64,000 nt of DNA from Bacilli bacterium (GTDB taxonomy: Bacteria; Bacillota_I; Bacilli_A; RFN20; CAG-826). The notes below the pieces were generated by a model, which did not search any database, was not told the origin of the DNA, and saw only the letters and a program-made list of their open reading frames with translations. Shown here one piece after another: positions 17,506 to 42,966 of the stretch. Made by a program: the position numbers and the translations under genes. The number at the start of each line of letters is the position of its first letter. Position 1 is the first letter of the stretch. The stretch covers positions 10,758-74,757 of the forward strand of contig JAGCDH010000021.1 of the NCBI GenBank assembly GCA_017651165.1. Reading direction: 5' to 3'.

Positions 17506-17506
17506 C

Positions 17507-18253
17507 TTATTTACCTCCTCCTTCGGTAATGACTTCGTTATGGCCAATATCACCAATACAAGTAACAACGGCCTTACCGATATTTGTGTATTCTTTGAGC
17601 GCTTTTAAGTAGGTGTTAATGTTCTTATCACCATCGATATAGCGTTCAATAACTTTCACTGATACAAATGGGACTTTCTTTAAGTCCGCGGCTAATGCTA
17701 ATCCCGCACTATTGTTATCAAAGACCACGTTATTAGCGAAACCAAGTAAGTGTTCACATTCTTTTAAGTGATCAACTTGATTAACACGGTGATAGTCCAC
17801 AGATGTAGAAATATAATTACAAACATTGAGTTTGCTAAATGTTCTCTTTTCAAAGGCATCAGTTAAATAACCGATGACGTCATCTTGACAGACGAACACT
17901 TGTTCATAGCCAGGAATTTGACCGAATTTAACATTGTCTTCGTTAATTTGGTCAACGTCTCCCGCCACTACTCTCTTAGAGATAGCGATTTCTGATGGTT
18001 TAACATCATGGGTGAAGGCGATGCAACGACCGACATTAAAGATTAAGAAGATGAAATACTTCTCAATGAGATGGAGGATTAAAGCGCTACTAACATAGTT
18101 AGTTTTGACTTGGTCCACTAAAACGACACCTTGGTTGAAGATCGTACCCACAGTAACTGGGTATTTACCAAGAATGAGTTCTTCTTTCTTGTTAGACATG
18201 ACGCTTTCAAAATAAAGGATGTCGTCATGTTGATTACCGACGATTAAAATCAT
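17507..18253 (-). CDS. MTA/SAH-nucleosidase (PNP_UDP_1) fold protein, divergent, with catalytic residues apparently substituted
   Basis: By eye it is collinear with Pfs/MtnN: MILIVGNQHDD vs MKIGIIGAMEEE; FGQIPGY vs YGQLPG; VPFVSVKVIERYID vs VPFVVVRAISDVAD. ATGA overlap with the upstream EAL gene; its stop lies 1 nt before the downstream EAL start. Confidence 0.45.
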   Translation of the reverse strand: MILIVGNQHDDILYFESVMSNKKEELILGKYPVTVGTIFNQGVVLVDQVKTNYVSSALILHLIEKYFIFLIFNVGRCIAFTHDVKPSEIAISKRVVAGDVDQINEDNVKFGQIPGYEQVFVCQDDVIGYLTDAFEKRTFSKLNVCNYISTSVDYHRVNQVDHLKECEHLLGFANNVVFDNNSAGLALAADLKKVPFVSVKVIERYIDGDKNINTYLKALKEYTNIGKAVVTCIGDIGHNEVITEGGGK

Positions 18254-25861: not shown

Positions 25862-27079
25862 TTAAGCGTTCACCCTATTAATTTCAAAAGTTAAACCAAT
25901 ATCGAAATACTTGCCGATTTCTTGATCGATAATGGAGAAATCCCAACCCTCTAACCAAATGGTCATGTTAACACGGCCAAAGAAGTGATCTTCTTCTGTA
26001 CCGGTCTTACATAATGAGGTTGGGTGATTGGCGTCTTTATTACTTAAGACACCAGAAGATCTACTTGGCGCGATACTCTTTAATGATTCATAGGCTGCGG
26101 TTTTAATACCACAGTGCTCTAAAGTATCGTAGTAGTACACGCCTTGCATGTGCTTACCTGTAAAGGTATCCATGGTATCTTCGGCCACAGATGTACGACC
26201 CGTGCCATTAATATCCACGTACTCGTCCGTACCTGCATAACCAGTGGTACTTCTATCTGAAGTATTTTCGTATTCACCAAAAATAATTTCATTATTATCA
26301 TCGTCATAGTCGTAGTAACCATTACCAGCGACATCTAGTAAACCACCCACTTTTGTGGAACCACCAGTAAGACTTGTGGATGATGGATTAAAAATGAAAT
26401 CATCTTCATATTGCCCCACTTCATTAATGCGGTCAACATAAATCCTCAAAGATTTATTGACATACTCATTATCTGAATAGGCGTGAGCGACCGCGTCAGT
26501 TAACCAAAGTTCTTGTCCAGAGACATAATCAGTGGATGATGCGAAAGCCTTTTTCGCCACTCTAAAGAGGAATTGGAAAGAGGCAAAGTGGTCTCTTGTA
26601 GCAATTAAGCTATCGTCATAACTATAAATATCACGGTCTGGATTTGGAGATTGTTTGAGTTTACCAGAAGTGTTCCAGTTGGTACTGTCCCATGGATTAA
26701 CCCAAGCATCACCTCTAGCGTATGATCCAGAAGTAATTGGAATCAAATAGTTGGTAGCAAAGCCATTAGCGGATAAATACTTATTAAGTATAGAAGAAGA
26801 AAGGCTTGCACCAATAGGAGCGAAATAATAGAAATTATTATCTCCTTGGTATGTTTCTAAAGACATTCTATCGCTATCTTCAAAGTCGATTGCGACAGGA
26901 GAAGCAAACCCAATTTGTAATTGGGCAGTCTCTTTAACGGAAGTGCCAGAATATGAAACAGCCGCACGTGTGCTATATGCGTACCACGCTAAAGAAGCGC
27001 TGACTGAGCCTATTAATGAGGCACCAGTAGCTAATCCGAAAAAACCGAACAATAGTTTAGCGGGATTAAACTTTTTCAT
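25862..27079 (-). CDS. Secreted TasA/SipW-signal-type protein, paralog 4
   Basis: Start moved to the ATG at 27079 (GGAAGGAG SD): MKKFNPAKLLFGFFGLATGASLIGSVSASLA|WYAYS. It carries LRIYVD, LLDVAGNGYYDYDDD and VNMTIWLEGWDFS. Confidence 0.6.
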   Translation of the reverse strand: MKKFNPAKLLFGFFGLATGASLIGSVSASLAWYAYSTRAAVSYSGTSVKETAQLQIGFASPVAIDFEDSDRMSLETYQGDNNFYYFAPIGASLSSSILNKYLSANGFATNYLIPITSGSYARGDAWVNPWDSTNWNTSGKLKQSPNPDRDIYSYDDSLIATRDHFASFQFLFRVAKKAFASSTDYVSGQELWLTDAVAHAYSDNEYVNKSLRIYVDRINEVGQYEDDFIFNPSSTSLTGGSTKVGGLLDVAGNGYYDYDDDNNEIIFGEYENTSDRSTTGYAGTDEYVDINGTGRTSVAEDTMDTFTGKHMQGVYYYDTLEHCGIKTAAYESLKSIAPSRSSGVLSNKDANHPTSLCKTGTEEDHFFGRVNMTIWLEGWDFSIIDQEIGKYFDIGLTFEINRVNA

Positions 27080-27165
27080 ATTCTCCTTCCTTTTTGTATA
27101 GTACAAAGTCACATATGAATGTGTATGCGAGAGTATTTAATGATGTGAGAATTAAGTTGGGTTAA

Positions 27166-28221
27166 TTAATCAACGTCAACAGCAAAGCGGAAAGCAACTT
27201 CAAATTCAGAAGCGATAAATGCACCGGCATCCCAAACAGAGGAATAGCTTGTGGAATTTGGTTGTTCTAACTTTTGCCAACCTTCCACCCAAATGGTGAC
27301 ATCAATGTTAAGGAACTTATCACCAGCTTCAGTTGTGGAACCTAAGCATTTTGATTTGCCTGTATCGTATTCTTTCTTTGCTAATTTTGCAGTGTTATTA
27401 GCGTCTAAACCTGCGACAAGTGGATACACGACTGCTTCATCTTGTAAAGCACCTTCACCGTCATAGTATGTTCCGGCTCTTTGGTCAACTTCCGCTGAGA
27501 AGGATACTTGTTCACCTGCACCATAGTCTATAAAGGTTTTGGAATCGTCATAGCCATAGCCATCATCGAATTCATAATCGTTACCTGGATCAGCATCAAG
27601 ATCTAAATAACCATGAGTGACGGTTGTACCACCTTTTTTAGAAGCTAAGAAGTTTCTAACTACAGTTGAGCCATCTTGTTTAGCAGAGAAGTGGACACGG
27701 ATAGCATCAGAAATATCGCTATGTGTGGTATCTGCGGCATGTTTAGAAATGTGTAAGTCAGTGAGATAAATCTCTTTGGCTTTAAATGATTGAACGCTGT
27801 TATTTAATTCTTTATAAGAGAGTTGTAATGGTAAAACGACATAGTTTTTAGTTTCCACTTTCTTCCAAGCACTGACTTCTGGGTGTCCTGCAAGAGGATT
27901 ACCATAGAATTTAGCAGGAAGAGCATCATCTTTATCCATTTCGCCTGATGTAATAGGCATCATTTTAGAACCATATTGTGTGGTGGCTAAATAACTGTTG
28001 ATTTGTTGATAAGTAAACTTTTCAGACCAACCTTGGTTATCAGCTTGACCGTCTTTTCTAATGCGCATTAATAAATTGGCGCTTTCGCCTAAATTAATGC
28101 CCATATAAGCGGCTTGTGTTCTAACAGAATATTGATACCATGCAATGGTACTAGTAACAGAACCTGCTACACCCGCACCAATTAGCATTGCCATCGCGGA
28201 AACAACAATTCTCTTTTTCAT
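27166..28221 (-). CDS. Secreted TasA/SipW-signal-type protein, paralog 3
   Basis: N-terminus MKKRIVVSAMAMLIGAGVAGSVTSTIA|WYQYS. It carries PITSGEMDKDDALPAKFY, DAIRVHF, YLDLDADPGNDYEFDD and IDVTIWVEGWQKL. AGGGAGA SD. Confidence 0.6.
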   Translation of the reverse strand: MKKRIVVSAMAMLIGAGVAGSVTSTIAWYQYSVRTQAAYMGINLGESANLLMRIRKDGQADNQGWSEKFTYQQINSYLATTQYGSKMMPITSGEMDKDDALPAKFYGNPLAGHPEVSAWKKVETKNYVVLPLQLSYKELNNSVQSFKAKEIYLTDLHISKHAADTTHSDISDAIRVHFSAKQDGSTVVRNFLASKKGGTTVTHGYLDLDADPGNDYEFDDGYGYDDSKTFIDYGAGEQVSFSAEVDQRAGTYYDGEGALQDEAVVYPLVAGLDANNTAKLAKKEYDTGKSKCLGSTTEAGDKFLNIDVTIWVEGWQKLEQPNSTSYSSVWDAGAFIASEFEVAFRFAVDVD

Positions 28222-28253
28222 AACTTATTCTCCCTTAAAGGATACTTTGCTGA

Positions 28254-29261
28254 TTAAGCATGATCAGCATCCGAATGGAGATCAACACCAAATGTTAAAC
28301 CAACATTAAATTTCTTATTTGTGTATTTAGCACTATCCCAAACTTGGGTATCTTCACTATCGATGTTATTGGCGACACCATGTTTTAACATAGCCCAGCC
28401 TTCTAACCAGATAGTCACTTTGACTTCTAAGTATTCACCTGTAGTCGCACTTGTGTTACCAATCGCGGTACCACCAGAGATGGAACCATCATTAGCTTCA
28501 GTAGCAATGATATTACCGATGTTGGCATCATTAAGAGCATAGGCTTCTTGAGTAGCAGGTGTTAAAACACCACCACTTTCAGTCGCACTACCATAAATGA
28601 CTTTTTGTGAATCCCATTCATAACCACTTGTGTCATATTCACCATCACTATCTAAATCGAGATAGCCACCCACATCCGTGGAAGCATCTTGTTTAGAGAA
28701 TAAGAAGTACTTATGAGCAGTATTGCTATTGCTATCTTTATAAGTTGTAGCAATGTGCACTCTAATGGCGTTAGATAAATCTAATGTGCCGTTAGAAGAG
28801 GCATCTTGAATGGTCACATCTGTCAAATAGACATCGTTTTTGAGTTGTGCTGTCGTTTCGTTGACATCGTCAACTTTCACTAAAATAGTAAATTGTGCAT
28901 AGTTTTCAGCATCAGCGGTCAACCAATTGGTATAAGCGCCTTGCTTTGGATTTGGTTGTGCATAAAAGTTCGCTGGTAAATCAGCATCTTTATCTTGTTC
29001 ACCTGTTGTAATAGGTGCGAATTCAATATCGCTTGGTAAATCACTCATGCCGAGATGATTGCCCCAGGCTGGTGCACTACTATTTTTGACCGCTACCTTA
29101 AGTAACTTAGAACAATGAGTAGTTGTACCGGTATAAGCTAATTGTGCTTTAGTGGCATATTGAAACCATGCAACGGTACTAGTAATAGAACCGATCACGG
29201 AAGCACCCGCTAAAAGTGACAAGGATGAAATAATAACTTTTCTACTAAACTTTAAACGCAT
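28254..29261 (-). CDS. Secreted TasA/SipW-signal-type protein, paralog 2
   Basis: Start moved to the ATG at 29261 (GGAG 10 nt upstream): MRLKFSRKVIISSLSLLAGASVIGSITSTVA|WFQYA. It carries PITTGEQDKDADLPANFY, NAIRVHI, YLDLDSDGEYD and VKVTIWLEGWAML. 17-nt overlap with the upstream gene. Confidence 0.6.
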   Translation of the reverse strand: MRLKFSRKVIISSLSLLAGASVIGSITSTVAWFQYATKAQLAYTGTTTHCSKLLKVAVKNSSAPAWGNHLGMSDLPSDIEFAPITTGEQDKDADLPANFYAQPNPKQGAYTNWLTADAENYAQFTILVKVDDVNETTAQLKNDVYLTDVTIQDASSNGTLDLSNAIRVHIATTYKDSNSNTAHKYFLFSKQDASTDVGGYLDLDSDGEYDTSGYEWDSQKVIYGSATESGGVLTPATQEAYALNDANIGNIIATEANDGSISGGTAIGNTSATTGEYLEVKVTIWLEGWAMLKHGVANNIDSEDTQVWDSAKYTNKKFNVGLTFGVDLHSDADHA

Positions 29262-30123
29262 CAATGTTAACTCCGATTCTGAGTGATGCTTCTCTTGGAA
29301 TACCTTCGTCTGGCAAAGATTCTTTATCAGCGCCTTCAAGCCAAATCACGATTGTATAACGTCTTATAGAACCTGAATCAAAGATATATGAACTACCTTT
29401 GCCAGGAACAGAATAAGATAGGATTTTTTGACCGCTTTTGAATGATTGCGCTAACGGATGATCTTCGTCTTCAGTTTCTTCGTCATATGGACGGAAAGAA
29501 ATAAACTCACGATTTGTAGGAATCTTTTTCCCGTCTTCATTTACATAGTAATGAGTGTATGCGGATTCTTTAGCGTAAACGACAGGCTCAGCGTGCTCCT
29601 CACCGCCAGTGACATCAGTGTCATAAATCATGACGCGAATTGTGTCATCTAAAGTTCTTTCTGAACCGTCAGTGGCTTTAGTGCGATCTGTAAAATTAAC
29701 AGAAAAATCGTACTGAGCAGCCGAATTACCAGAATTCTTTACATAGAATGTGTACTTCATGTAATACAACGCTGCTACATTACCTTCTTCGTCATAACCA
29801 GCAATAGCGTCCTCGTTTTTATCAACATCGTTGGTAATTTCGTTATCAATGAGTTCTGTTTGACTAACGATTTGCTTATAACTATGTTCACGAAGTGGGT
29901 AAACCCTATCAAGGTGAATGTAAGTTGTGGAATTCTTAAATTCGAGATTGTCGCTTAAAGAAAGCTTTACATCAGTCTCCACCACTTTAATGGTAAAGGT
30001 ACCAGTATTACGACCAAGGAAAGAGGTCACGATTAAAGAAGCGACACCAATGGAAGCAATTAAGCTCACTAAGGCGGCGATCCTTCTTCTTCTGCGTTTC
30101 TTGACATAATACAAATCGTACAT
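29245..30123 (-). CDS. Membrane-anchored family member lacking the T-x-A|W cleavage motif (paralog 1; possible anchor/nucleator)
   Basis: Start placed at the ATG at 30123 (MYDLYYVKKRRRRRIAALVSLIASIGVASLIVTSFLGRNTG...). It shares the family blocks YTFYVKNSGNSAAQYDFSV, DTIRVMIYD and RYTIVIWLEGADKES. The track's TTG-start extension (to 30213) runs through the conserved RNA leader and was rejected. Confidence 0.55.
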   Translation of the reverse strand: MYDLYYVKKRRRRRIAALVSLIASIGVASLIVTSFLGRNTGTFTIKVVETDVKLSLSDNLEFKNSTTYIHLDRVYPLREHSYKQIVSQTELIDNEITNDVDKNEDAIAGYDEEGNVAALYYMKYTFYVKNSGNSAAQYDFSVNFTDRTKATDGSERTLDDTIRVMIYDTDVTGGEEHAEPVVYAKESAYTHYYVNEDGKKIPTNREFISFRPYDEETEDEDHPLAQSFKSGQKILSYSVPGKGSSYIFDSGSIRRYTIVIWLEGADKESLPDEGIPREASLRIGVNIDAFKV

Positions 30124-30183
30124 AAAAATGAAGTTTTTTTCCTTAAAAAAGCATCTAAATGTTAATTTGTCCCAATGGGTTTT

Positions 30184-30253
30184 GAAATAAAAATGCCAGT
30201 GCCTATCATCCAATTCATGGCGGGTTTATTTCTCACCCTAAGGCAACTGGCAA
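30184..30253 (-). terminator. Second conserved leader hairpin, copy 1, with a terminator-like U-tract
   Basis: RNA is UGCCAGUUGCCU...(inner hairpin GGGU/ACCC)...AGGCACUGGCA followed by UUUUUAUUU. Its homolog lies at 42750-42817. Confidence 0.5.
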
Positions 30254-30257
30254 TCTT

Positions 30258-30367
30258 TTATAAGAATATAAAACCTCAACTGCGATAAACAATTGAGGTT
30301 GCTGGCTATCTTATTAAGACCCTATAGTTTTGCGTCGCCGGATTGCTCCGGTTTTGCTTTTTTCTCG
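30258..30367 (-). promoter_or_regulatory. GEMM-I-type cyclic-dinucleotide riboswitch-like aptamer plus intrinsic terminator (copy 1)
   Basis: Minus-strand RNA is CGAGAAAAAAGCAAAA-CCGGA-GCAA-UCCGG-CGACGCAAAAC-UAUAGGGUCUUAAUAAGAUAGCCAGCAACC. It has the GCAAA block, a GNRA-capped hairpin, the GACGCAAA core and a 3' AUAGCC block, as in the Vc2-type c-di-GMP-I aptamer. An 11-bp terminator follows (AACCUCAAUUG/CAGUUGAGGUU) with a U-rich tail. Confidence 0.65.
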
Positions 30368-30372
30368 AATAC

Positions 30373-30401
30373 AACTTATCACAGTAAAATAAATACTGCA
30401 A
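30373..30401 (-). promoter_or_regulatory. Sigma-A-type promoter for riboswitch copy 1 / paralog operon
   Basis: On the minus strand: TTGCAG, a 17-nt spacer ending in TGA (extended -10), then TAAGTT. The predicted TSS is a few nt before the CGAGAAAAAAGC aptamer start. Confidence 0.45.
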
Positions 30402-32020: not shown

Positions 32021-35000
32021 CTAGTGGAAACCACCACTATCGAGGGTTATACCAGAAGAGAAGGTTACGACTCCTCCAGAGTAAGAAGAAACAGTGCCTA
32101 ATTCGATTACTTCATAGTCATTACTAGCGTCAACTGTCCAGAATTTAAGAGTGGCATTAACAACGCTTGGTGCATCGGTAATGATGCCACCATCAAGTAA
32201 GTCTTGAACTGATGAAACATAGAAATAAATATCATCGATTTGGTTCTGTTGATCTTTATATCTCCAGCCAGATGAAGTGCCGGTACTACCAATGACATAA
32301 TTCGTGTAAGTATAGAACTTCACACTTTCATCTCCCAAAATGAAGTATTTGGTATTGTTTGGATTATACTCACTATTATTGAGATTGAATCCTGTTGGTA
32401 ATTGTAATTCAGTAAGAGAAGTACAATTGTTGAATATACCACTATTATATGAATTCCATGTACAAGTTCCATTAGTGAATCTCACCGCTCTTAGAGATGT
32501 ACAACTCGCAAAGCATTCAGCGCCTAAAGATATAGAACTAGATTGAATAATGATTATCTCAATACTAGAGCCTTTAAACGCAGACGCGCCCATAGAAGTG
32601 ATACCACTTGGAAGAGTAACTTTAGCTGTTGCGGTCAAAGTACCGGTATTTTGGAACGCAGAGTCACCAATTGATGTCAAAGCGGTAAATTTATCAATCT
32701 CAATATTATTGAGGGCTGTACAGCCAGAGAAAGTGCTATTACCAATCGTGGTAACACCGATTGAACTACCATCAACTGTCACATTCGCTAATCTATTGTC
32801 CCCAGAGAATGCGGATGTACCTAATTGTGATCCAGTCAAATTAGATGGCAAGGTCACACTAGTAAGGTAATTACATCCAGCAAAAGACGAAGAGCCTAAG
32901 TTACCGGATAAATTAGATGGAATAGTCAATGTTGTTAACGAATCACAATTATTGAAAGCACTACCACCAATTGATGTGTGTGAGCCATTAGCGGATGGCC
33001 AAGTGATGCTTGTCACACCAGTACTATTAAATGCACTGCTGCCAATTGATAAAGTTCCAGTCACGCCTGAGAAGTTTAAGGTAAACCCACTACTACAAGA
33101 TTGGAAAGCACTTGTGTTAATGGTGATACTTCCAGTCACACTACTGAATTGGATAGAAGTAAGGCTGGAGCAAGATTTAAATGCCTCAGAATTGATAGTG
33201 ATTGTTCCAGAAGTTGTACCAAATTTAAGTGTTGTTAAGCTTGTGCAACCTTCAAAAGCATTAGCGTTGATAGTCAAATTTGTGCTCACTTTAGTGAAGT
33301 CTGCCTCTTGTAGTCTTGTGCATTGGTTAAATGCAGAAGAACCAACGGTAAAGGCACTCACTTGTGGAGCGATGAATTTTACAATAGAAGAGTTTTTCAT
33401 GAATGATTCTTCACCAAGACCAGCATATTGAGAATTGGTTAAATCTAATGTGCCATCAACAGGTGAATCACCTACAACGTAATAATCTGTATTTGTTGAT
33501 TCATTGTTAGCAAAAACACCAGCAGGAATAGTGGCACCACTATCGATTGGAAGTTCAACATAACGTAGTTTTTCACAACCATTCATACCGTACTCAGGCA
33601 AATTCATAACGTTACCAGAAATCGTATCTAAATCACATGCTAAGCCTTCATATGTGTATGCGGCTTTGCCCAAATAAATGATGGAAGTTTTCATCGTTGA
33701 GTTATTAGATGATCTAATACCAACACCGGAAATAAGTGGCTGTGCAGGTGTTGCATTGCCATTCTTAGTCGGATTGCCACAAGTCAAGTTCAAAATCCAA
33801 TAGCCCATCTTGAACGCACCAAATAAATATGGATTGGCTTTATATAGACCATTAAATCTAATACCTTTAGCTTGGCCGTCTCTAGTAACTACTGTAGCGT
33901 CTAAATTATTAGCGGACGATTGTTTTGCGTCAGCGTTATCTCTATTTAAAACAAGAAGTAATCTATCCTTGTTATAAGTTAAATCATTGCTGTTTGTAGA
34001 ATACAAAGCACAGGTATATTTTGGAGTACCCGCAGTTGTTGAGGTATAAGTCGTTGTCTCATAATAATCTGAAGAATCAACTTCTTGGCCATTCTTCCAG
34101 AATGATATTCTTCTTAAATCGTTAGCAGCGGAGAATAATGATGTTGTCTTATAGATTGGATTACCAGGAGTTTCAGCATCATCAATCACGCCAGTTGGAT
34201 ATGTTGGATAAGTTTCATAGAAGCGACATTCATTTGGTATCTTTAATACATTTTTAACGCTGGAGAACAAGAAAGCGTGTTTACCAATATGTGTTAACGA
34301 GGACGGCATACCTTCGGTAGCAGAACCAGCACCCGTATATGAGGAAATGGTTGTCACGCCATAAGCGCGTGTAAAAGCATAATCACCAATTGATACGATA
34401 GTATTTGGAAGTTCAATTGCGCGTAAGTCATCAAAATTGCCAACAGTTTTATTTGGGCTTGTATCCTTGCCATCACAATAACATGCTGAGAAAGCAGAAT
34501 CGCCAATCTTATTAACTGTACATGTTCTATTTGTATCACCAATCTTAGCGGTCACTGTTTCTGGAACATGAGCAGTAATCTTTTGAGCGCTAAGCTTATC
34601 GTCATAAAGACTATACAAATAATTAGTCATTGTAGCGACATAATTAACGCCTACTTGACCACAGACAAATGAACAATAGTTGTTTTCGACATACTCTCTT
34701 GTGTTGCCACTACCAACTTCAACAGAAACATCGTCAGTACTATCTTCAGGAGTGTTTTTAATATCGATAGTCTCTTTATAGTGGACATTTTCGTAAACAG
34801 GCATTTCCTGATTAATGTCATATGTGCCAATTGATTTGTCGTTCGTATAGTCAGTTTTTATAACATTTGGAACGAAAGCATAACCCCAGTATTTTTGGTC
34901 GCCTGAACTATCAAAACGGCTTTCGTCACCGATGGTCTTCCATTGAGTGGCCAAAGTGTAATTAGCGTTTTGGAAAGATGCGACAGTACCACTATCACTA

Positions 35001-37255
35001 GATGTACCATTTGAGGTAATCCAAGCCCAATTGCCACCACTGGCGTCGGAAACCATGTTGTCACCTAACTCACCTGATAAATAAATTGCCCCTCTAGAAT
35101 TAGCATGGAAGCAGAATTTCTGGAACCTCAATTTCGTATTCTTATTTGGCAAAACTAATGTTTGCAAAAATGGTTCACCACGGAAATCATTTTCACCACG
35201 GCCAGAGTTTCCACCTATCGCTTCTTGAGCGTAGTTCTGCCCACTTTGCTGGGTATGAAATGTTATTTCATGGCCTTCTCTTTCTTCGAAAACAATTGTT
35301 TTCAAGGATTCGTTAAAGACGAACGTTTGAAGTGGAATAACTAAATTGGTTGTATCGCCTTCCGCTCCACCTTTAAAGATAACTTTCCCTAAAAGAGAGC
35401 AACCAGCAAAGGCGTGGGATGGTCTTTGATACTTCTCTGGCAAATAGCTTTCAAAGTCAAACGGGTGAACGGCTTTCGTTCTGTAAGTTTTTTTATCACT
35501 ACCAAGAATGGAAAAATATTTAAATGTTTTTGGGAAAATAATCGTCGATGCTGTATGGCTTTTCCAAGTGCTATTATTGGCAATCTGTCCACTACCACCT
35601 AGTCCAAGTCCATAGAAACAGTCGGTACCAATAGTTTCTAAAATAGAATCATCTTCATCATAGTCCCAAGTAAATTCATCTACGGACGGAAGCATTCTTT
35701 GCGAGAAAATGCCAAACGCTTCATCACCAACAGCACGGAGTTTGGCTGGTAAACGAAGTTTTTGAATATCGCTTTTTACAGTTTTCCCTCCGATGCCAGA
35801 GAAAGCACGGAATCCAATGAATTCGAGTTCTGTTAAACCAGATAAATCAATTCTCTTTTCGATGTTGGCTTCTTGTCCACTATCATATAATCCTTTATCA
35901 ATAACACACTTTGTGTTGTCATCAACAACCGCAAGATTCTTGTAACCATGTGCATCGTTATAATTAAACTGGCCATCACCTGGTTTTTGAACATGCGTGC
36001 CATCAGCGTTCCATATGTTAAACATATTATTTTCAATAGCCACCATTGTTTTTGGCAAATATAAACGCTTTAGAGCTTTTTTAACATCTTCAGTAAACGT
36101 TGTACGAGAAACACGAATAACTCTATTGTTAGCAGGAGATGGCATATGATCTGGAACGGAAATAAACCATCCTGTTGCTGCGGTTGGTGTTGGGCCGTTA
36201 TATTTAGTAATTGTTACATCGCCATTTGGATCGCATGTATAGTCCCAGTCTGCAGAAAAATAAGTGTCACCGGTTTCAATTCTAGCGGTGTATTTATTGG
36301 TAGATGGATTCCCTCTATCGTCATACCAACCCCAATTTGGGTGATTTGAAATCCATGTGTTAACAGTGGCGGTTTCCCCACAGAAGACAATATCCAAATT
36401 GTCTGGAGATGACAATGTACTGCAGTAATTAAAAGCATGTGGTTCAATACCAATAGAATCGGTAAATAACGTCTTAGAGATATAAACTTTTCTTAAAGCA
36501 GCACAGCCTTGGAATGCTCTTGCACGAATCTTTTTGATATTTTGGAAATAAATAGGAGAGTTCAAAGAATAGCAACCATTAAACGCTTCTTCGCAGATTT
36601 CTTGAATGCTAGAAGGAAGCGACAATGTCGTCATAGCGCTACATTTAAAGAAGCAATATGATGGGATTTTTGTTAATGCACTATATGTGATTTGCTGACT
36701 AGATTGACCACCACCAATAGGGTCGCCATTTTCATCACAATAACATTCAGTAGCGGAACCACTACTTTCTTGGTCACTATTAACAAAAGTCACAGTGGTT
36801 AAGCTCTTGCAGTGATAGAAGGCTGCATCACCAATCTCACTGACGGAATATGGAATGGTAATTGTGGTAATACCACTATATAAGAAAGCTTCGAAGTCAA
36901 TTGTATTAATCTTGTTTGTTAAACGTACAGTTTGCGCTGGATTGCAGTGGAAAGCATTATGCCAAATACCAGTGACATTTTTGCCATCGTATGTTTCAGG
37001 AATTTGAATGGCGGTACTATAAGTGGTTCTATTGGTTTCATTTAAACCGATAGCGAGTTCGTTATTGCCAATATCATAATAACTGAAGATACCATCATCT
37101 TCAACATATGAGCCAGTTAAAATGTAATGAGGTTCAATGGCAGGCGCTTTGCGTTGAGTGGATCCACAACCTGTAGCAGTAATAGCCAAAGCGAAAGTTA
37201 ACCCTGCAAACGAGAGGCCAAGTATTTTATGTTTTTTAACAAATGCTTTTTTCAT
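32021..37255 (-). CDS. Giant surface lipoprotein (1744 aa) with BspA-type leucine-rich repeats
   Basis: Signal peptide plus lipobox (LAITATG|C). It has dozens of approximately 23-aa repeats of the form I(P/G)xxAFxxCxxLTx(I/V), densest in the C-terminal third. No LPXTG motif. Confidence 0.75.
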   Translation of the reverse strand: MKKAFVKKHKILGLSFAGLTFALAITATGCGSTQRKAPAIEPHYILTGSYVEDDGIFSYYDIGNNELAIGLNETNRTTYSTAIQIPETYDGKNVTGIWHNAFHCNPAQTVRLTNKINTIDFEAFLYSGITTITIPYSVSEIGDAAFYHCKSLTTVTFVNSDQESSGSATECYCDENGDPIGGGQSSQQITYSALTKIPSYCFFKCSAMTTLSLPSSIQEICEEAFNGCYSLNSPIYFQNIKKIRARAFQGCAALRKVYISKTLFTDSIGIEPHAFNYCSTLSSPDNLDIVFCGETATVNTWISNHPNWGWYDDRGNPSTNKYTARIETGDTYFSADWDYTCDPNGDVTITKYNGPTPTAATGWFISVPDHMPSPANNRVIRVSRTTFTEDVKKALKRLYLPKTMVAIENNMFNIWNADGTHVQKPGDGQFNYNDAHGYKNLAVVDDNTKCVIDKGLYDSGQEANIEKRIDLSGLTELEFIGFRAFSGIGGKTVKSDIQKLRLPAKLRAVGDEAFGIFSQRMLPSVDEFTWDYDEDDSILETIGTDCFYGLGLGGSGQIANNSTWKSHTASTIIFPKTFKYFSILGSDKKTYRTKAVHPFDFESYLPEKYQRPSHAFAGCSLLGKVIFKGGAEGDTTNLVIPLQTFVFNESLKTIVFEEREGHEITFHTQQSGQNYAQEAIGGNSGRGENDFRGEPFLQTLVLPNKNTKLRFQKFCFHANSRGAIYLSGELGDNMVSDASGGNWAWITSNGTSSDSGTVASFQNANYTLATQWKTIGDESRFDSSGDQKYWGYAFVPNVIKTDYTNDKSIGTYDINQEMPVYENVHYKETIDIKNTPEDSTDDVSVEVGSGNTREYVENNYCSFVCGQVGVNYVATMTNYLYSLYDDKLSAQKITAHVPETVTAKIGDTNRTCTVNKIGDSAFSACYCDGKDTSPNKTVGNFDDLRAIELPNTIVSIGDYAFTRAYGVTTISSYTGAGSATEGMPSSLTHIGKHAFLFSSVKNVLKIPNECRFYETYPTYPTGVIDDAETPGNPIYKTTSLFSAANDLRRISFWKNGQEVDSSDYYETTTYTSTTAGTPKYTCALYSTNSNDLTYNKDRLLLVLNRDNADAKQSSANNLDATVVTRDGQAKGIRFNGLYKANPYLFGAFKMGYWILNLTCGNPTKNGNATPAQPLISGVGIRSSNNSTMKTSIIYLGKAAYTYEGLACDLDTISGNVMNLPEYGMNGCEKLRYVELPIDSGATIPAGVFANNESTNTDYYVVGDSPVDGTLDLTNSQYAGLGEESFMKNSSIVKFIAPQVSAFTVGSSAFNQCTRLQEADFTKVSTNLTINANAFEGCTSLTTLKFGTTSGTITINSEAFKSCSSLTSIQFSSVTGSITINTSAFQSCSSGFTLNFSGVTGTLSIGSSAFNSTGVTSITWPSANGSHTSIGGSAFNNCDSLTTLTIPSNLSGNLGSSSFAGCNYLTSVTLPSNLTGSQLGTSAFSGDNRLANVTVDGSSIGVTTIGNSTFSGCTALNNIEIDKFTALTSIGDSAFQNTGTLTATAKVTLPSGITSMGASAFKGSSIEIIIIQSSSISLGAECFASCTSLRAVRFTNGTCTWNSYNSGIFNNCTSLTELQLPTGFNLNNSEYNPNNTKYFILGDESVKFYTYTNYVIGSTGTSSGWRYKDQQNQIDDIYFYVSSVQDLLDGGIITDAPSVVNATLKFWTVDASNDYEVIELGTVSSYSGGVVTFSSGITLDSGGFH

Positions 37256-37328
37256 AATGTTTTAGCGATTCAATTACAATTGAACTTTCTCCTTTCTTTA
37301 AAATCGAATATATAAATGCCTTTTGTTT

Positions 37329-40300
37329 CTATTCAGGCGGATAAACAATTCTTGTAGCGGTAGAATCATCCTCATTAAAGAGCTTAACGGTTGTATTTGT
37401 TAAACCTGTCACTTGTTGGTGATTTTGAGCATAGTTAGATACAGCAACAAAGAGCATCGCTGATAATGTTGTAGTCTTAATCTTAAACTTGCCGTCTTCA
37501 TAAACGAATTCAATGTTAGAAACAGCAGCGTCAAATAAAGAACGTTCAGAAGTTAAGAACGAGACATATAATCTTTGGTTTTCGATATGTCCATCGTTAG
37601 CGTTATATGTCACGATTTCATCTAAAGATGTGATGTTGGTTGTAACCACACCATTTTCATAGGTAAATCTTGGAACCTTCACAAAGTCGACGTTTTCAAC
37701 GGTATCTTCACTAGCAAAGGTGTTTTCAGAGAATTCAATATTACCATCGGTTTGACCTTGAGCACAGAGATAGAAAATCTTAGCGGTACCTTCAGAACCT
37801 CCCACTCTATTTTCACCGGTTGCAGAACCGATACAATATTGTCCTGGATCTAATTTGAAAGTATGGGCAAATAGTCTAGTTTTACCACTGCTATAACCAA
37901 ATTCTGTGGTGTTATATAAACTTGGAATTGTGGCTTCAGTATTAGTGGTTGCTTCAGTAAATACGGTACCCGTGGAGTTATAAACACCAATTTTACCGAC
38001 ATCATGTTCATCTACTTTGTAGTCAAAATAGGCTAGATGGTCATCGGCTGGCATAAAGAATGCGTAGTCTGGATCATCATATGATAAGCCATTAAGATAT
38101 GGCGGGTTATTACCGACTGTCGTTCTTGTGACACCATCGATCTTATAAACACCTAAAGCAGCAGGTTTGGTAATATCAGTTAAGCCCGCAATAACGGTAA
38201 CGTTAGCGGTATTGGTCTTAATACTAAAGTTAACCATGTTAGCGGCAGGATAAGAGAATTCGGAATTGTTAACACAGTAAATCTTCTTACCTTCCAAAGA
38301 TAAGTCAGGTGTCGCAAAGCTAGCGGAGAAGGAACGTAGTTCTTGACCTAAGCTATTTCTAAGCATGATACCGCTTAATTTACTATCGGAAGAAGCAAGG
38401 ATTGGGTGTCCTTCTTTATCAACGAGTTTGTTTTCAAAGTGATGAGATAAGAAGGAACCACCAGGAGATGTCTTATCAACATCAGAGAAATAGAATCCTT
38501 TACCTGTACGATAAGAACCATCGACTTTGAAACGGAAAATGTAGTTTTGATGGGCGTCGCGTTGTTCAAAGCTCTTCGTGGAGATTTGATCATAATTTGG
38601 GAAGTGTAAGCCAGGGAAGAACTCTTCTGGGGTATCAGCTTTCATACCATCTCTGTACTTAGAGAATGGTAAAGAGGCCTTGTTGGCTTTGGTATATTCA
38701 CCAGTTGTGTAATAGATATAGTAAGAAGAATTAACGGAAGGATCTTCCGAACGAATGATAGAGTTTTCTAATTCGTTACCGACATCGCTATCCATACCTG
38801 AACCAGTTTGGTCAGTAGCCACTGTGAAAATACCTAAGTCTGAGTTAGTAATAACTTTCTGACGATTAAATGAAACGGTATTAGCGCTGTGAGTAACATA
38901 TGTTGAGTTATTAGATCTTAAGAATTCAGCATAGAGTTTTGAAGATGATGGAACGTAGGTCACACCACCAAGAGGATAATCTGAACTGCCATTAAATGAA
39001 GTTGGGGTAATGATATCGTTATAGACGGTTGTAAAGTCAAGAACACCGATATCTTTACCAACAGAAGTGCCAGCATCACTTTCTTCAGCGGCGAAATTGT
39101 GGACGGTACCACCAACTAAACCGATAAGACCATAGTTAGAACCATTAGCCATCTTGTTATATGAGGCATCACCATTATTCATATCGAAAGCGCCGTGATT
39201 AACATAACAATGGTTAACAGAACCATCGCAGTGGCCAATCAATAAACCGATATTGTTGTTGTGTTCTTCGCCTAAGTGCGCGTTCATAATGAGGTAATCT
39301 GTGGTACTTGAGTTCAATGAGAAGTTGAAATCAAGAGTGATGATAACCTTAGAGTGATCTAAGCCGTAATTATCGGTCATACTAGCGACGAGAGAAACAG
39401 ATGATGTCGCTGTTAATGGATAGGAAATGTTAATTAAATCGAGTTTTTCTTTTCTAAAGAACTTATAAACCGCTGGTAAATCAACTTTCACTTGACCATT
39501 ACCAATATCGGTTAAGAAGTCACCAGAAATGAGGAATTTATATCTATAAGCGGAGTTTGTGGTATTAAAGCCAATGATTGGAGAAGGATCTGTGATTTCT
39601 GGTTCGTCACTAACACCATCCCAAGCAAAAATATCACTAGCGTCAAAAGTACCCGCTTTAAATTTATCAGTATCAGCAAGAGTAAATGTGTCGTTATCTT
39701 CTTCAAATGAGTATGTGAGGTATGTATTAGCGGCAGCGGCACATGGAGTACCATATAAGCCAGAATAACCAGATGTATAGCCTCTCGCGTGAATGGTCAC
39801 GTTATCTAAGAATAATTCCTTAACAAGGGACCCGTGTGCGGTATAACCAAATAAACCAGCGTCTTCTGGGTCGGCATAAACGTTGAGGTTTTTGATTTCT
39901 AAACCTTGGCCGTCGAACACGCCGAAGAATGGCACCGCTTCAGTTCCAATCGCTGTAATTGGTTCGTAATTAAAGTTAGATTCATGCATATCAAGGAATG
40001 GCACTTTAGTGGATGAAGAGTCATCTAAATAGCATAGTTTTTCAAGAGGTCTAGCGGGATCTAATCCTAATAAACCTAATTGGAAATACTTCTTTTCGCC
40101 AAAGACACCTAAACCTTGTAAACGGGAAAGGTTATATAAGTGACGAGGTCTAGTAATGACATATGGGTCATTTTCTTCACCAGTACCACGTTCAAAGTAA
40201 GAACGAAGTGAAACTTCACCATAGGAACCATTACTCTCGGCTTCTTTAGTGAATAAAGACATGGTGAAAGGCACCATGAGACCAACAGAAGCCACTAAGA

Positions 40301-40355
40301 AAATAGCGGCATATAAATATAAGAATTTACGAGAGGCGAACTTTTTAACTTTCAT
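37329..40355 (-). CDS. 1008-aa secreted or membrane-anchored protein, probable parallel beta-helix adhesin-like
   Basis: N-terminal TM with FTMS|LFTKE (a possible SipW-type site). It then has GTGEENDPYVITRPRHLYNLS, which is typical of the start of beta-helix surface proteins. GGAGG lies within the end of the upstream gene. Confidence 0.5.
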   Translation of the reverse strand: MKVKKFASRKFLYLYAAIFLVASVGLMVPFTMSLFTKEAESNGSYGEVSLRSYFERGTGEENDPYVITRPRHLYNLSRLQGLGVFGEKKYFQLGLLGLDPARPLEKLCYLDDSSSTKVPFLDMHESNFNYEPITAIGTEAVPFFGVFDGQGLEIKNLNVYADPEDAGLFGYTAHGSLVKELFLDNVTIHARGYTSGYSGLYGTPCAAAANTYLTYSFEEDNDTFTLADTDKFKAGTFDASDIFAWDGVSDEPEITDPSPIIGFNTTNSAYRYKFLISGDFLTDIGNGQVKVDLPAVYKFFRKEKLDLINISYPLTATSSVSLVASMTDNYGLDHSKVIITLDFNFSLNSSTTDYLIMNAHLGEEHNNNIGLLIGHCDGSVNHCYVNHGAFDMNNGDASYNKMANGSNYGLIGLVGGTVHNFAAEESDAGTSVGKDIGVLDFTTVYNDIITPTSFNGSSDYPLGGVTYVPSSSKLYAEFLRSNNSTYVTHSANTVSFNRQKVITNSDLGIFTVATDQTGSGMDSDVGNELENSIIRSEDPSVNSSYYIYYTTGEYTKANKASLPFSKYRDGMKADTPEEFFPGLHFPNYDQISTKSFEQRDAHQNYIFRFKVDGSYRTGKGFYFSDVDKTSPGGSFLSHHFENKLVDKEGHPILASSDSKLSGIMLRNSLGQELRSFSASFATPDLSLEGKKIYCVNNSEFSYPAANMVNFSIKTNTANVTVIAGLTDITKPAALGVYKIDGVTRTTVGNNPPYLNGLSYDDPDYAFFMPADDHLAYFDYKVDEHDVGKIGVYNSTGTVFTEATTNTEATIPSLYNTTEFGYSSGKTRLFAHTFKLDPGQYCIGSATGENRVGGSEGTAKIFYLCAQGQTDGNIEFSENTFASEDTVENVDFVKVPRFTYENGVVTTNITSLDEIVTYNANDGHIENQRLYVSFLTSERSLFDAAVSNIEFVYEDGKFKIKTTTLSAMLFVAVSNYAQNHQQVTGLTNTTVKLFNEDDSTATRIVYPPE

Positions 40356-40360
40356 AATCC

Positions 40361-41884
40361 TTATTCGCCTCCTGAACTAGAACTTGAAGATGGACTCACT
40401 TCTGAATGTTGTGTGGCAGTGAAATAGAATCCAAAATCACGATCTAGATAATATGTCTTACCAAGACGATTTTCATTGGTGAAGAAACGCATATATTCAT
40501 AGTCATATTCGATACCGATATAACAGTGATAAACATTATTAGTTGCAGAAGCTGGAATTAAAGCAGTGTCTGCATTGGTCTTTGGATGTAAGACACATTC
40601 TTCGTTTGGAATGGCTTCATCAAATGATGTATCGTTTTTAAATTTCACATATTGATATTCACTACTCACTTGATAGTCAGTTTTCAAATTATGGATAGCG
40701 TTCCAAGCATCCGCAGCACTAGCATATGCATTAGCGTCTTTGGCAAAGACAAAATAGAACGCATAGAAGTCACTAGCCTTAAGTGGGTTTCTATGTGAAG
40801 CATCAACATAACCTTGATAGGTATAGCTATCTGTTGTGTTATATTTACCACTGAATCCATAAATGGATTGAGCGCTTTGAGCATCTCTCACCACTCTTAA
40901 ACCAGCATCAATTGGGTTTTTGTTTTGATAGGTAAGTTGGACATCAAGCACTACCATGGTCATTTGTTCTTGAATGGCGGTTGATAAATAAGAATCCATA
41001 GTTGGATATTGTTGTGTATCAACAGAACCACGATAGTCAATGGAGATCTTGGTTGGGTCAACTAAGTTAGTGCCAATGATAGCGTTATCATTACGACTTG
41101 CTAACTCGATATCTAAGTAATAATGGTCTTCATCATTAACGCTTTCAACACGGTAGATGAAATTATAAAGACCACTCTTAAGGCATTTGACTCTATTAGA
41201 ATCGACTAGGCTAAATCTTGAAACTTTGTTAGTTTCAGGAGTGATTGATGTATAAGTATAGTAATTGCAATTAGCACCATTAATTGTGTAAGCATCAAAT
41301 AAAACAAATTCCGCACCAGTGGAAACTAAAACATTTGAAACGACGATAGGATCATCACTAGTGAGGGCATCTCTTCTCGAGAAGCATGTCGCTGTTAAAG
41401 TGGACCATGGGTTATCACTAATACCGGTAAAAACACCATTGCCTAAAAGATAGTATTTGAAATCCTGTGATGTTTCATAATGGATCTTGGTTGGACCAAT
41501 ATTCGCATCACTTGGAGATGTGGCATAGGTAGAAGAGGAACCAAGGCTTAAAGCGATGGTCACTGTATCAGATAAATTACCAGTGACATCTGTTGTGGTG
41601 TCTTGGACGACATAGCTCTTAACCGCACCAACACCATCGTAATCGATGAACTCATTAGAGTTTCTATGGTATGGATAAACGTATTTATAAGCAGTGACTT
41701 TGTCAATGGAGATATCTAAGTCACCAGAGAATGTTTGAATTGTGGAAGCGGTTTGAGTTGATAAAGCAAACCAAGCGAAAGTCGCGGCGGATAAGGCGAA
41801 AAGATTACCAATAGTAAAGGCCACCATGGCAATCATGGTCTTTTTCTTAGTAAAGAATCTCTTTCTTGTTTTTGCCTCTTTCAT
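40361..41884 (-). CDS. 507-aa secreted TasA/SipW-signal-type protein
   Basis: N-terminus MKEAKTRKRFFTKKKTMIAMVAFTIGNLFALSAATFA|WFALS, with a Ser-rich C-terminus. Confidence 0.55.
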   Translation of the reverse strand: MKEAKTRKRFFTKKKTMIAMVAFTIGNLFALSAATFAWFALSTQTASTIQTFSGDLDISIDKVTAYKYVYPYHRNSNEFIDYDGVGAVKSYVVQDTTTDVTGNLSDTVTIALSLGSSSTYATSPSDANIGPTKIHYETSQDFKYYLLGNGVFTGISDNPWSTLTATCFSRRDALTSDDPIVVSNVLVSTGAEFVLFDAYTINGANCNYYTYTSITPETNKVSRFSLVDSNRVKCLKSGLYNFIYRVESVNDEDHYYLDIELASRNDNAIIGTNLVDPTKISIDYRGSVDTQQYPTMDSYLSTAIQEQMTMVVLDVQLTYQNKNPIDAGLRVVRDAQSAQSIYGFSGKYNTTDSYTYQGYVDASHRNPLKASDFYAFYFVFAKDANAYASAADAWNAIHNLKTDYQVSSEYQYVKFKNDTSFDEAIPNEECVLHPKTNADTALIPASATNNVYHCYIGIEYDYEYMRFFTNENRLGKTYYLDRDFGFYFTATQHSEVSPSSSSSSGGE

Positions 41885-41899
41885 GTTTGTTTACCAATA

Positions 41900-42748
41900 T
41901 TATTTTAGCGCAAAGTTAAGTCCATAAAGACTTAAACTTTCATAACAGTTACTATTGCCATTCACGCTGTCTTGGACATAATAATCTGTCGCGCTGTTGT
42001 AACGATAGAATGTAGAGCTGGCATTAGAGAACTCAATGGTGAAGAACACAACGATTCTATTACCAGCGGATACATTTGGAATGGAACTAACCACTTCAAG
42101 TTCAGGTTTATCAGAAGTTGGAGCTAAATTACTTTGTGAATAAGTGAAAACATCGTTTTTAGTAGCTCCAAAATAGGATGCTCTATAAGCAGTGGCAATA
42201 TCAGCGGCTTTATTATTGGTGGCGGTCACACTATAAGCGGCACCATAAATATCAATCGCCCAAGATAAACGGACATATTGTTCAGCGCTGATCTTTGGTG
42301 TGCCTTCAGTACCCGCTGTTTCTGTCCAATCCACTAAAGATAATTTGCTAGCCTCACCACTATCGACAGTGACGGCAAATGTTAACTTATGAGCAGGCCA
42401 TAAGTGACGAATATCTGTAGGATTTGGAGTTGGTAAGTTTTCCATATCAATTTCGGTGAATGTCGCATTCTCATAATCGACTTCGTAACCAGAATTGATG
42501 TTAGTTGTGGTGTTTAAATTGCCATCTTGTGTATCACTATTACCATCAGTGAATGATGAGAGATAGAAAAGTTCAAAATTGACATCTGGTGGAGTAGCAA
42601 CACTGATTTGCATACCAGTCGCTGTTGCAGTGGAATTAGAAGCAAACCAAGCATATGTCGCTGTGAAAGCGGAGAACAAAGTGAAAACTGCGGTACCAGT
42701 CGCACCGATGATTTTGAGTCTAGTTCTAAGTTTTCTGTTCGCTTTCAT
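41900..42748 (-). CDS. 282-aa secreted TasA/SipW-signal-type protein, first gene of operon A
   Basis: N-terminus MKANRKLRTRLKIIGATGTAVFTLFSAFTATYA|WFASNSTATATGMQISV. No SD; the ATG follows the leader U-tract by 2 nt. Confidence 0.55.
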   Translation of the reverse strand: MKANRKLRTRLKIIGATGTAVFTLFSAFTATYAWFASNSTATATGMQISVATPPDVNFELFYLSSFTDGNSDTQDGNLNTTTNINSGYEVDYENATFTEIDMENLPTPNPTDIRHLWPAHKLTFAVTVDSGEASKLSLVDWTETAGTEGTPKISAEQYVRLSWAIDIYGAAYSVTATNNKAADIATAYRASYFGATKNDVFTYSQSNLAPTSDKPELEVVSSIPNVSAGNRIVVFFTIEFSNASSTFYRYNSATDYYVQDSVNGNSNCYESLSLYGLNFALK

Positions 42749-42749
42749 T

Positions 42750-42817
42750 GAAATAAAAATGCCAATTGCCTATTTCTAATTCAGTGGTTAATATTTACCA
42801 CCCAAGGCAACTGGCAA
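42750..42817 (-). terminator. Second conserved leader hairpin, copy 2, with a terminator-like U-tract
   Basis: RNA UGCCAGUUGCCU...(inner hairpin GUGGU/ACCAC)...AGGCAAUUGGCA followed by UUUUUAUUU. Relative to copy 1 it shows compensatory differences. Confidence 0.5.
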
Positions 42818-42821
42818 TCTT

Positions 42822-42932: not shown

Positions 42933-42937
42933 TTATA

Positions 42938-42966
42938 TTTTTACCATCATCTTTAAAAGATGTCAA
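42938..42966 (-). promoter_or_regulatory. Sigma-A-type promoter for riboswitch copy 2 / operon A
   Basis: On the minus strand: TTGACA, a 17-nt spacer ending in TGG (extended -10), then TAAAAA. Confidence 0.5.

Follow-up and report, generated by a model that had tools for sequence, protein, structure and literature searches.

Leaders of the GEMM-I riboswitch family with one aptamer 5' half and two candidate closing strands in uncultured Bacilli

Introduction

Among riboswitches of the cyclic di-GMP-I class (c-di-GMP-I or GEMM-I; Rfam family RF01051, Vc2 type), the closest architectural precedent for the leaders described here is Bc1 of the Bacillus cereus group, whose leader carries two intrinsic terminators downstream of a single aptamer (PMC11218506). 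The second terminator of Bc1 stays folded with ligand and masks the response, and its authors noted that a dual terminator within one platform is rarely seen (PMC11218506). Here we describe two leaders, A and B, in a 64,000-nucleotide (nt) stretch of DNA from a Bacilli bacterium (GTDB lineage Bacillota_I, Bacilli_A, RFN20, CAG-826; GenBank assembly GCA_017651165.1, contig JAGCDH010000021.1, positions 10,758 to 74,757 of the forward strand). This whole stretch is called the window; coordinates are those of the window and refer to its minus strand (-) unless a plus is given. Like Bc1, each leader has two terminators, T1 and T2, behind one aptamer. Unlike Bc1, for which a second aptamer strand is undescribed, the 5' arm of T2 is here a complete copy of the aptamer 3' strand that is predicted to be able to close the aptamer, so that T2 is not structurally independent of it. 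We call the two 3' strands #1 and #2.

Two ligand-gated terminators in series, with a steeper, digital response expected, are also found in tandem "pseudo-cooperative" riboswitches such as Bc3-5 of B. thuringiensis (PMC4759541). Tandem c-di-GMP-I riboswitches have been catalogued as 347 doublets and 12 triplets (PMC9481103). Such tandems have at least two complete aptamers, whereas leaders A and B have one 5' half and two 3' strands, whose closed states would be mutually exclusive and sequential. The catalogue discarded overlapping matches as a single riboswitch (PMC9481103), so a layout of this kind would stay hidden. Bi-mechanism tandems (e.g. SAM-II/SAM-V; PMC9481103) control transcription and then translation, like the 11 to 14 of 50 leaders related to A and B in which a terminator is followed by a start-codon hairpin. 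Those tandems have two separate aptamers, however, and the leaders of the window have a U-run on both platforms.

The GEMM-Ib riboswitch Gs1761 of Geobacter, which responds to 3',3'-cyclic GMP-AMP (3',3'-cGAMP), shares with leaders A and B an A for G at position 20, but comes from another lineage and gene context, and some leaders of the window type carry G. Bc2 of B. thuringiensis, also a Firmicute, is a c-di-GMP-I riboswitch in the 5' untranslated region of a surface adhesion gene (cap, collagen adhesion protein). It has a single aptamer and an apparently single platform (PMC4933901), unlike leaders A and B, and the regulated proteins are unrelated. A search of the literature, incomplete in coverage, surfaced only Bc1 and general reviews, and no description of one half-aptamer with two closing strands.

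Results

Two leaders of the c-di-GMP-I family

The whole window was scanned with Rfam cmscan at the curated gathering thresholds, which for RF01051 is 35 bits. Two of the four matches above threshold were RF01051, at 42858-42932 (leader B; 49.1 bits, E 1.5e-6) and at 30294-30368 (leader A; 47.4 bits, E 3.7e-6), and both alignments span the full model (positions 1-87). By family membership leaders A and B are predicted to be genuine c-di-GMP-I (GEMM-I) riboswitches and, as such, to bind ligand. A sequence-only reading of this DNA, made without database searches, had assigned both leaders to this family and proposed the RF01051 scan, which both pass; the leader sequence that it quoted at 30258-30367 and 42822-42932 is present as given.

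Like Vc2-type members, both leaders have a full-model match, GCAAA, a GNRA-capped P1a, the GACGCAAA junction, an AGCC ... (A/G)CC 3' strand and a terminator overlapping the 3' strand. By alignment, the A47 equivalent (in GACGCAAA) and the CC of ACC/GCC are present in both. Unlike that type, the leaders have A at model position 11, the equivalent of the ligand-contacting G20 of Vc2. They also lack 12 consensus positions of the distal P1b arm, which are deleted in the Rfam alignment, and have two 3' strands, each in its own shut-off hairpin. The hallmark blocks had been read correctly before, while the A at the G20 position, relevant to the question of which ligand is bound, had been overlooked.

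A long P1b arm with a tetraloop receptor is absent, and relatives with a single closing strand are likewise short in P1b; some GEMM-I members are described as having no tetraloop receptor. The expression platform overlaps the elements with which it would compete, the aptamer 3' strand and P1: the T1 arm AACCUC covers ACC and the P1 3' strand, and the T2 5' arm is strand #2.

In pairwise alignment the sole difference between the two aptamers is the P1a tetraloop, GCAA in leader A and GAAA in leader B, a GNRA-to-GNRA change already noticed in the sequence-only reading. This loop is GNRA in all 50 related leaders described below (GCAA 22, GUAA 14, GUGA 7, GAAA 4, GCGA 3). The P1a stem is paired in 100% of an alignment of 42 leaders, and three of its pairs show covariation, with changes on both sides.

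One 5' half and two 3' strands

Pairwise alignment of the leaders with each other gave a conserved, duplicated block of ~185 nt, at 30185-30369 for leader A and 42751-42933 for leader B, and not the ~110 nt supposed earlier. T1 had been recognised, but the leader does not stop there: conservation runs ~75 nt further, through a second aptamer 3' strand and a second terminator, so the mechanism would differ from the earlier single-terminator view. Both terminators, each with a U-run, lie behind one aptamer in leader A as in leader B.

Leader A begins with the P1 5' strand (GAG) and a 6-nt A-rich junction, whose last A is the G20 equivalent in the Rfam alignment (30358-30369). The rest of the aptamer 5' half (30318-30357; within the 47.4-bit RF01051 match) comprises GCAAA, the GCAA-capped P1a, GACGCAAA with the A47 equivalent, and the P1b 5' strand AACUAUAGGGUC. 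Strand #1, GAUAGCCAGCAACC (30297-30310), closes the aptamer in the Rfam alignment as what we call form 1. The T1 hairpin (30272-30300) has the 5' arm AACCUC, which overlaps strand #1 and the P1 3' strand; the terminator scan gave 12 pairs followed by the U-rich UUAUAUUCUU, and over the 42 aligned leaders 97.6% of the cells of T1 are paired. The U-rich tail and linker after T1 (30256-30271) are complementary to the P1b loop and the GAU of #1, a candidate pairing here called helix H, for which duplex permutation tests are given below. Strand #2, GAUUGCCAGUUGCC (30242-30255), could act as an alternative closing strand, giving what we call form 2, in which the P1b loop would contain T1 as an insertion, as the RF03167 alignment indicates. 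In minimum free energy (MFE) folds T2 (30185-30253) has strand #2 as its 5' arm, a closing stem UUGCCAGUUGCCU : AGGCACUGGCA, a branched interior, and then UUUUUAUUU.

Leader B has the same parts. Its P1 5' strand (CGAG) and A-rich junction, with A at the G20 position in the Rfam alignment, lie at 42922-42933, and its aptamer 5' half with a GAAA-capped P1a at 42882-42921 (within the 49.1-bit RF01051 match). Strand #1, GAUAGCCAGCAACC, was placed at 42861-42874 by the Rfam alignment. By sequence and fold, T1 (42835-42864) has one bulged C and is followed by UUUUAUAUUCUU. The U-rich tail and linker, which in the duplex tests is the 3' strand of helix H, are at 42820-42834. Leader parsing placed strand #2, GAUUGCCAGUUGCC, at 42806-42819, where CGAG:CUUG would give a 4-bp P1 in form 2. 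T2 with UUUUUAUUU occupies 42751-42817 and has a probability of 1.00 alongside its MFE fold.

An overlap of the terminator with the aptamer 3' flank had been proposed from the letters alone and is borne out, since the T1 arm AACCUC takes in the aptamer ACC together with CUC, the partner of the 5' GAG. The accompanying idea of competition between GAG:CUC and the terminator is also supported, GAG:CUC being present in 42/42 leaders, and it would make the switch an ON type.

A permissive Rfam scan of leader A gave an alignment to RF03167 (46.5 bits, E 5e-10) in which the same 5' half is paired with strand #2 (AAGAUUGCC-AGUUGCCUUAG) across a 65-nt T1 insertion; RF03167 scores reach 58.8 bits in relatives. 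There is one 5' half per leader, and the RF01051 and RF03167 alignments overlap on it. We rejected the "GGC" variant (RF03167) as the identity of leader A, the A47 position being canonical. The match points only to the existence of a second closing strand. T2 as a known RNA family was rejected too, since an Rfam scan of leader A to E 10 gave only spurious weak matches in the T2 region.

Further conserved sequence was seen in the leaders of A-type operons, that is, of the kind behind leader A. The branched T2 interior is conserved (GGG..CCC, GCCAU..AUGG, AUGAUAGGCA; 30195-30240 in leader A), and so is a CCCAUUGGGACAAA motif right after T2 (30166-30179 in leader A). No Rfam family matched the T2 interior or the CCCAUUGGGACAAA motif of A-type leaders; the two might form a further regulatory layer.

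Dual and single leaders in related genomes

The first gene behind leader B encodes a 282-amino-acid (aa) protein with 197 homologues in its family. A protein-alignment search, with one genome per species, gave an unbiased set of 17 loci, all in rumen or gut metagenome-assembled genomes (MAGs) labelled uncultured Bacillales, Erysipelotrichaceae or Bacilli. A GEMM-I-clan match lies directly upstream of the gene in 16 of them. Nine loci have dual leaders and seven have single ones; the remaining locus has no GEMM-I match. The dual layout consists of the 5' half, strand #1 (GAUAGCCAG[CU]AACC), T1, strand #2 (GA[CU]AGCCAGUU[GA]CC) and a second hairpin, and strand #1 is invariant in these nine leaders. 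In the single layout there is one #2-type strand, and its CCAGUUGCC is the 5' arm of the sole terminator.

Because the single leaders use a #2-type strand with a T2-type terminator, strand #2 is orthologous to a working aptamer strand. Because these relatives carry that strand with only one terminator, #2/T2 would be the ancestral expression platform and #1/T1 an addition within the P1b loop. Origin from a degenerate tandem riboswitch found no support, since #2/T2 is the one module present in the single relatives and the additional module is placed within the P1b loop.

A metagenome scan by the #1/T1 signature listed 123 pattern matches, from which 71 without an aptamer 5' half and 4 filter false positives were discarded; it contributed at least ~48 true leaders. 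At least 50 distinct dual leaders, from rumen Bacilli MAGs and metagenomes, were parsed, and counts out of 50 refer to the dual leaders parsed among the matches listed. Strand #2 was present in 50/50, and among the matches listed no signature-positive leader with enough sequence was without it. Dual leaders precede two operon types, both of which are seen in the window, and some contigs have two dual leaders ~5 kb apart (L055, L056).

Of the 50 dual leaders, 36 have a U-run behind the second hairpin. In the other 14 there is mostly no U-run and the 3' arm of the hairpin ends on the start codon (e.g. UAGGCAAUG, AGGUAAUG), so this hairpin would act as a translational platform. The base at the G20 position tracks the second platform, with G in 11/14 leaders with start-codon hairpins and A in 33/36 with U-tailed terminators, which is probably a clade effect.

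Pairing, covariation and predicted folding

All pairing statistics come from one alignment of 42 leaders. The P1b pair nearest the junction is formed in 0/42 leaders with strand #1 and in 42/42 with strand #2, and the next P1b pair in 5/42 and 37/42, respectively. Since these two junction-proximal pairs are missing with #1 and formed with #2, strand #1 is a systematically weakened copy of the closing strand. In P1, strand #1 gives GAG:CUC in 42/42 leaders; with strand #2 the pairs are G-C in 42/42, A-U in 41/42 and G-U or G-C in 33/42. The GAY of strand #2 is conserved though it lies outside the T2 stem, and strand #2 is constant while the T2 3' arm varies (AGGCACUGGCA, AGGCGACUGGCU, AGGUGACUGGGA and others).

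Helix H, in which the P1b loop and the GAU of #1 are complementary to the post-T1 linker, has a native mean of -3.66 kcal/mol. Swapped partners gave a mean of -3.01 kcal/mol, with 0/2000 permutations reaching the native value, and shuffled linkers gave -1.68, in controls uncorrected for kinship among the leaders. The transcript 5' end is likewise complementary to the segment after #2 (CGAG:CUUG, GUGAG:CUUAC and CUCGAG:CUUGAG are examples), and the native value was reached by 1/5000 permutations in energy and 22/5000 in contiguous pairs, again uncorrected for kinship. That helix H restores a canonical tetraloop receptor in form 2 was dropped as an argument, single-strand relatives also being short in P1b.

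Folding was computed without ligand or tertiary terms. In the ensembles, as long as the T1 3' arm has yet to be made, strand #1 is the partner of the sensor half (probability 0.51; P1 0.63); once T1 is complete its lower stem forms (0.97) and P1 is lost. For a transcript ending 8 nt past #2, the unconstrained MFE structure is a complete GEMM-I fold with #2 and helix H, and with T1 as an insert. For the sensor GUC at this length, pairing with #2 has a probability of 0.66 and pairing with #1 one of 0.05, and #2 is favoured in 42/49 leaders. In full-length transcripts T2 has a mean probability of 0.88.

Forced conformers were obtained with soft-constraint bonuses, after which the true energy was re-evaluated. 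Holding form 1 against T1 costs a median of 13.9 kcal/mol and holding form 2 against T2 a median of 12.9 kcal/mol, so the two switching modules are predicted to be energetically matched. With #2 present, the median advantage of form 2 over form 1 is 11.4 kcal/mol, and in no case is form 1 the more stable, so in this model the exchange from #1 to #2 is downhill.

Promoters, operons and neighbouring genes

Sigma-A-like promoters with 17-nt spacers had been proposed directly upstream of both leaders; both elements are seen, and their position is kept in the 50 leaders. The candidate promoter of leader A is TTGCAG-17 nt-TAAGTT with TGn before the -10 (30373-30401), and related A-type leaders have the same promoter position and motif (TTGCAC/TTGCGC ... 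GTGATAAG/T). That of leader B is TTGACA-17 nt-TAAAAA, also with TGn before the -10 (42937-42966); the promoter scan gives it an 18-nt spacer with AAAAAT. Promoter-like elements stand in the same register across the 50 leaders, B-type included. Transcription would start a few nucleotides before GAG.

In leader B the T2 U-run is followed after 7 nt by the start codon (42748) of the 282-aa gene, which has no Shine-Dalgarno sequence (uuuuuauuucaAUG; 42748-42760). Most other genes of the window have a clear AGGAGG-type site. A start without a Shine-Dalgarno sequence is also seen in relatives (L004, L013).

The operon behind leader B (32021-42748) encodes 282-, 507- and 1008-aa proteins without known family and a 1744-aa BspA-type leucine-rich repeat (LRR) protein (Pfam LRR_5, E 5.9e-84). 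The operon behind leader A (14446-30123) encodes several paralogues that begin with a hydrophobic helix and fall in no known family; after them come an AAA-like protein and two EAL proteins, of 510 aa (18250-19782) and 1040 aa (14446-17568). Pfam matched EAL in the two at E 8.3e-68 and 8.6e-30, confirming the EAL proteins that had been placed at the end of the operon behind the leader at 30 kb. If the switch is ON with c-di-GMP, these EAL genes suggest negative feedback on c-di-GMP.

The operons had been described as full of secreted fibre and adhesin proteins. This stands for the one BspA-type LRR protein and not for the others, since most of the other regulated proteins, the 282-aa family included, matched no Pfam or NCBIfam family. 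A confident AlphaFold2 model of the 282-aa protein (predicted local distance difference test score, pLDDT, 86.7) has an N-terminal helix and a beta-sandwich. We do not assign it as a fibre protein: Foldseek gave no PDB match at E <= 0.001, the best being a pilin (E 0.011) and the TasA fibre (E 0.064), with template-modelling (TM) scores of 0.22-0.25. It is plausible that the regulated proteins are surface or secreted proteins.

Paralogues at 25862-29339 and 41900-42748 share an N-terminal hydrophobic helix ending in AW[FY] and a C-terminal (V/M)TIW(L/V)EGW. They belong to a large uncharacterised family of rumen Bacilli with no Pfam or NCBIfam match.

Other features lie upstream of leader B. 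A gene for a HepT-like RNase overlaps one for an MNT-type nucleotidyltransferase (43507-44300); the two resemble a toxin-antitoxin pair, and a desulfoferrodoxin gene and leader B follow closely downstream of them. A tRNA gene (61.6 bits) at 48857-48928 (+) lies between the SHMT and RhuM/Fic genes. A COG3943 RNA (RF02941, 102.2 bits) at 50382-50488 is directly upstream of the RhuM/Fic-domain open reading frame (ORF) at 49361-50314, and occurs also in a related locus (L010). A DHH/DHHA1 protein of the NrnA-like phosphoesterase family (51518-52465) adjoins an inositol monophosphatase-family gene. NrnA-like phosphoesterases can break down short oligoribonucleotides, and a link of the protein to pGpG turnover is only a thought.

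Discussion

We favour, with confidence somewhat above even, a reading in which each leader is a GEMM-I ON riboswitch whose one sensor gates two successive checkpoints. Family membership, anatomy, conservation in 50 leaders, pairing statistics and predicted energetics are shown here; that ligand binds and turns expression ON, and that the strands exchange and do so fast enough, we infer. We give an even chance to the more specific proposal of a hitherto undescribed architecture, namely that a single half-aptamer is completed in turn by a weakened strand, set against T1, and by a full-strength strand, set against T2 or a start-codon hairpin, so that ligand is checked twice during transcription.

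In this scheme the aptamer 5' half (P1 5' strand, GNRA-capped P1a, GACGCAAA junction and P1b 5' strand) would be made first and closed initially by strand #1 (GAUAGCCAGCAACC and CUC). With ligand bound, ACC-CUC would be kept in the aptamer, the lower T1 stem with its arm AACCUC would come too late, and polymerase would pass T1; without ligand T1 would form and transcription would stop. After read-through, T1 and helix H (P1b loop with post-T1 linker) would be completed, strip #1 from the sensor and bring strand #2 (GAYAGCCAGUUGCC) beside the 5' half. Because it restores the two junction-proximal P1b pairs, #2 would outpair #1, and the aptamer would re-form around T1, by then an insertion of the P1b loop. 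Since the second hairpin has strand #2 for its 5' arm, only ligand-bound form 2 would avert the second shut-off; by withholding #2 from T2, or in some relatives from the start-codon hairpin, it would let the operon be expressed. Expression would then need ligand twice, and a tighter OFF state and a steeper response are expected. The main uncertainty is the kinetics of the hand-over, namely how fast ligand-bound form 1 would exchange and whether ligand is retained or rebound.

Several points weigh against this scheme. Each of its steps (ligand binding, termination at T1 and at T2, exchange of strands) is a prediction from sequence. Complexes of c-di-GMP-I riboswitches are reported to be very long-lived, and a ligand-locked form 1 might not exchange in time. 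The leaders are close kin, most paired columns are invariant, the permutation tests are uncorrected for shared ancestry, and true covariation is confined to P1a, the inner T1 stem, helix H and outer P1. Because strand #1 served as the search pattern for the metagenome set, its constancy there is built in, and on this point the nine protein-retrieved leaders are the unbiased ones. P1 of form 2 is weak: most leaders have 2-3 contiguous pairs, and those of the AGAG class no more than 1-2. Helix H, rich in AU, is weak as well, at about -3.7 kcal/mol. The nearest-neighbour energies ignore tertiary contacts and ligand. Finally, in Bc1 of B. thuringiensis the second terminator is ligand-independent and masks the switch (PMC11218506).

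This precedent leads to an alternative that we hold to be rather unlikely, in which form 1 and T1 make an ordinary single ON riboswitch followed, as in Bc1, by a ligand-independent terminator or attenuator, with #2 an ancestral leftover and T2 leaky or otherwise relieved. Bc1 does have two terminators in one platform, with its T2 intact regardless of ligand (PMC11218506). Form 1 alone exceeds the Rfam threshold, and the form-2 P1 is weak in many leaders. A leftover, however, would hardly keep the full aptamer consensus in 50/50 leaders, including the GAY outside the T2 stem, while the other arm of T2 varies. Nor does this alternative account for helix H and the pairing of the 5' end with the post-#2 segment, whose complementarity exceeds that of permuted controls, or for an MFE structure that becomes the canonical aptamer fold once #2 emerges. 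A strong constitutive T2 (probability 0.88, U5) would moreover silence the operons. The opposite simplification, that form 2 is the sole working aptamer, "T1" a long distal P1b extension, #1 a decoy or relic and T2 the sole regulated terminator, seems to us improbable. It is in keeping with the sister operons, which use one #2-type strand with a T2-type terminator, with the thermodynamic preference for form 2 once it is made, and with the variable P1b arm of canonical GEMM-I. But #1 matches an aptamer 3' strand perfectly over 14 nt, the CUC behind it has its GAG partner in 42/42 leaders, the protein-retrieved set shows no variation in #1, and form 1 scores above the RF01051 threshold. T1 also scores as a terminator with a U-rich tract, and if unregulated inside the aptamer it would abort most transcripts.

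As for the ligand, c-di-GMP is most likely for leaders A and B, and 3',3'-cGAMP may cross-react. The same architecture could instead have 3',3'-cGAMP as its physiological ligand in leaders A and B (GEMM-Ib-like), a possibility to which we give little credence. It arises from the A at model position 11, present in both window copies and in 36/50 dual leaders. An A in place of G20 is the hallmark of the Geobacter cGAMP riboswitches, and the G20A mutant of Vc2 is reported to bind both c-di-GMP and 3',3'-cGAMP (PMC6140456). The same source, however, describes A20 as permitting c-di-GMP binding via protonated adenine, and bispecificity as widespread (PMC6140456). It also tells against a dedicated cGAMP switch that 14/50 leaders of this architecture, some of them preceding homologues of the 282-aa gene, have G, and that the regulated operon encodes two EAL domains, of the c-di-GMP phosphodiesterase family. 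No GGDEF genes were found among the window ORFs scanned.

As members of a well-known riboswitch class, in front of surface-protein operons in an uncultured rumen Bacilli lineage, leaders A and B are routine additions; the interest lies in the extended dual-strand anatomy. Such elements escape surveys in which overlapping aptamer matches are merged. Ready comparison sets are at hand in the 50 natural variants, in the sister leaders with one strand, and in the variants whose second platform is a terminator or a start-codon hairpin. If the two-checkpoint reading is true, it would suggest why a second terminator need not mask the switch, unlike in the puzzling case of Bc1, and would offer a design rule for synthetic biology, by which a first strand of reduced strength precedes one of full strength. 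The leaders would then be a natural case of one sensor reused by programmed strand exchange over two serial checkpoints, with 1.5 aptamers doing the work of a tandem (tight OFF state, steep response, or control of transcription and then of translation). For these Bacilli this would be a compact route to a digital response that is otherwise reached by duplicating whole riboswitches.

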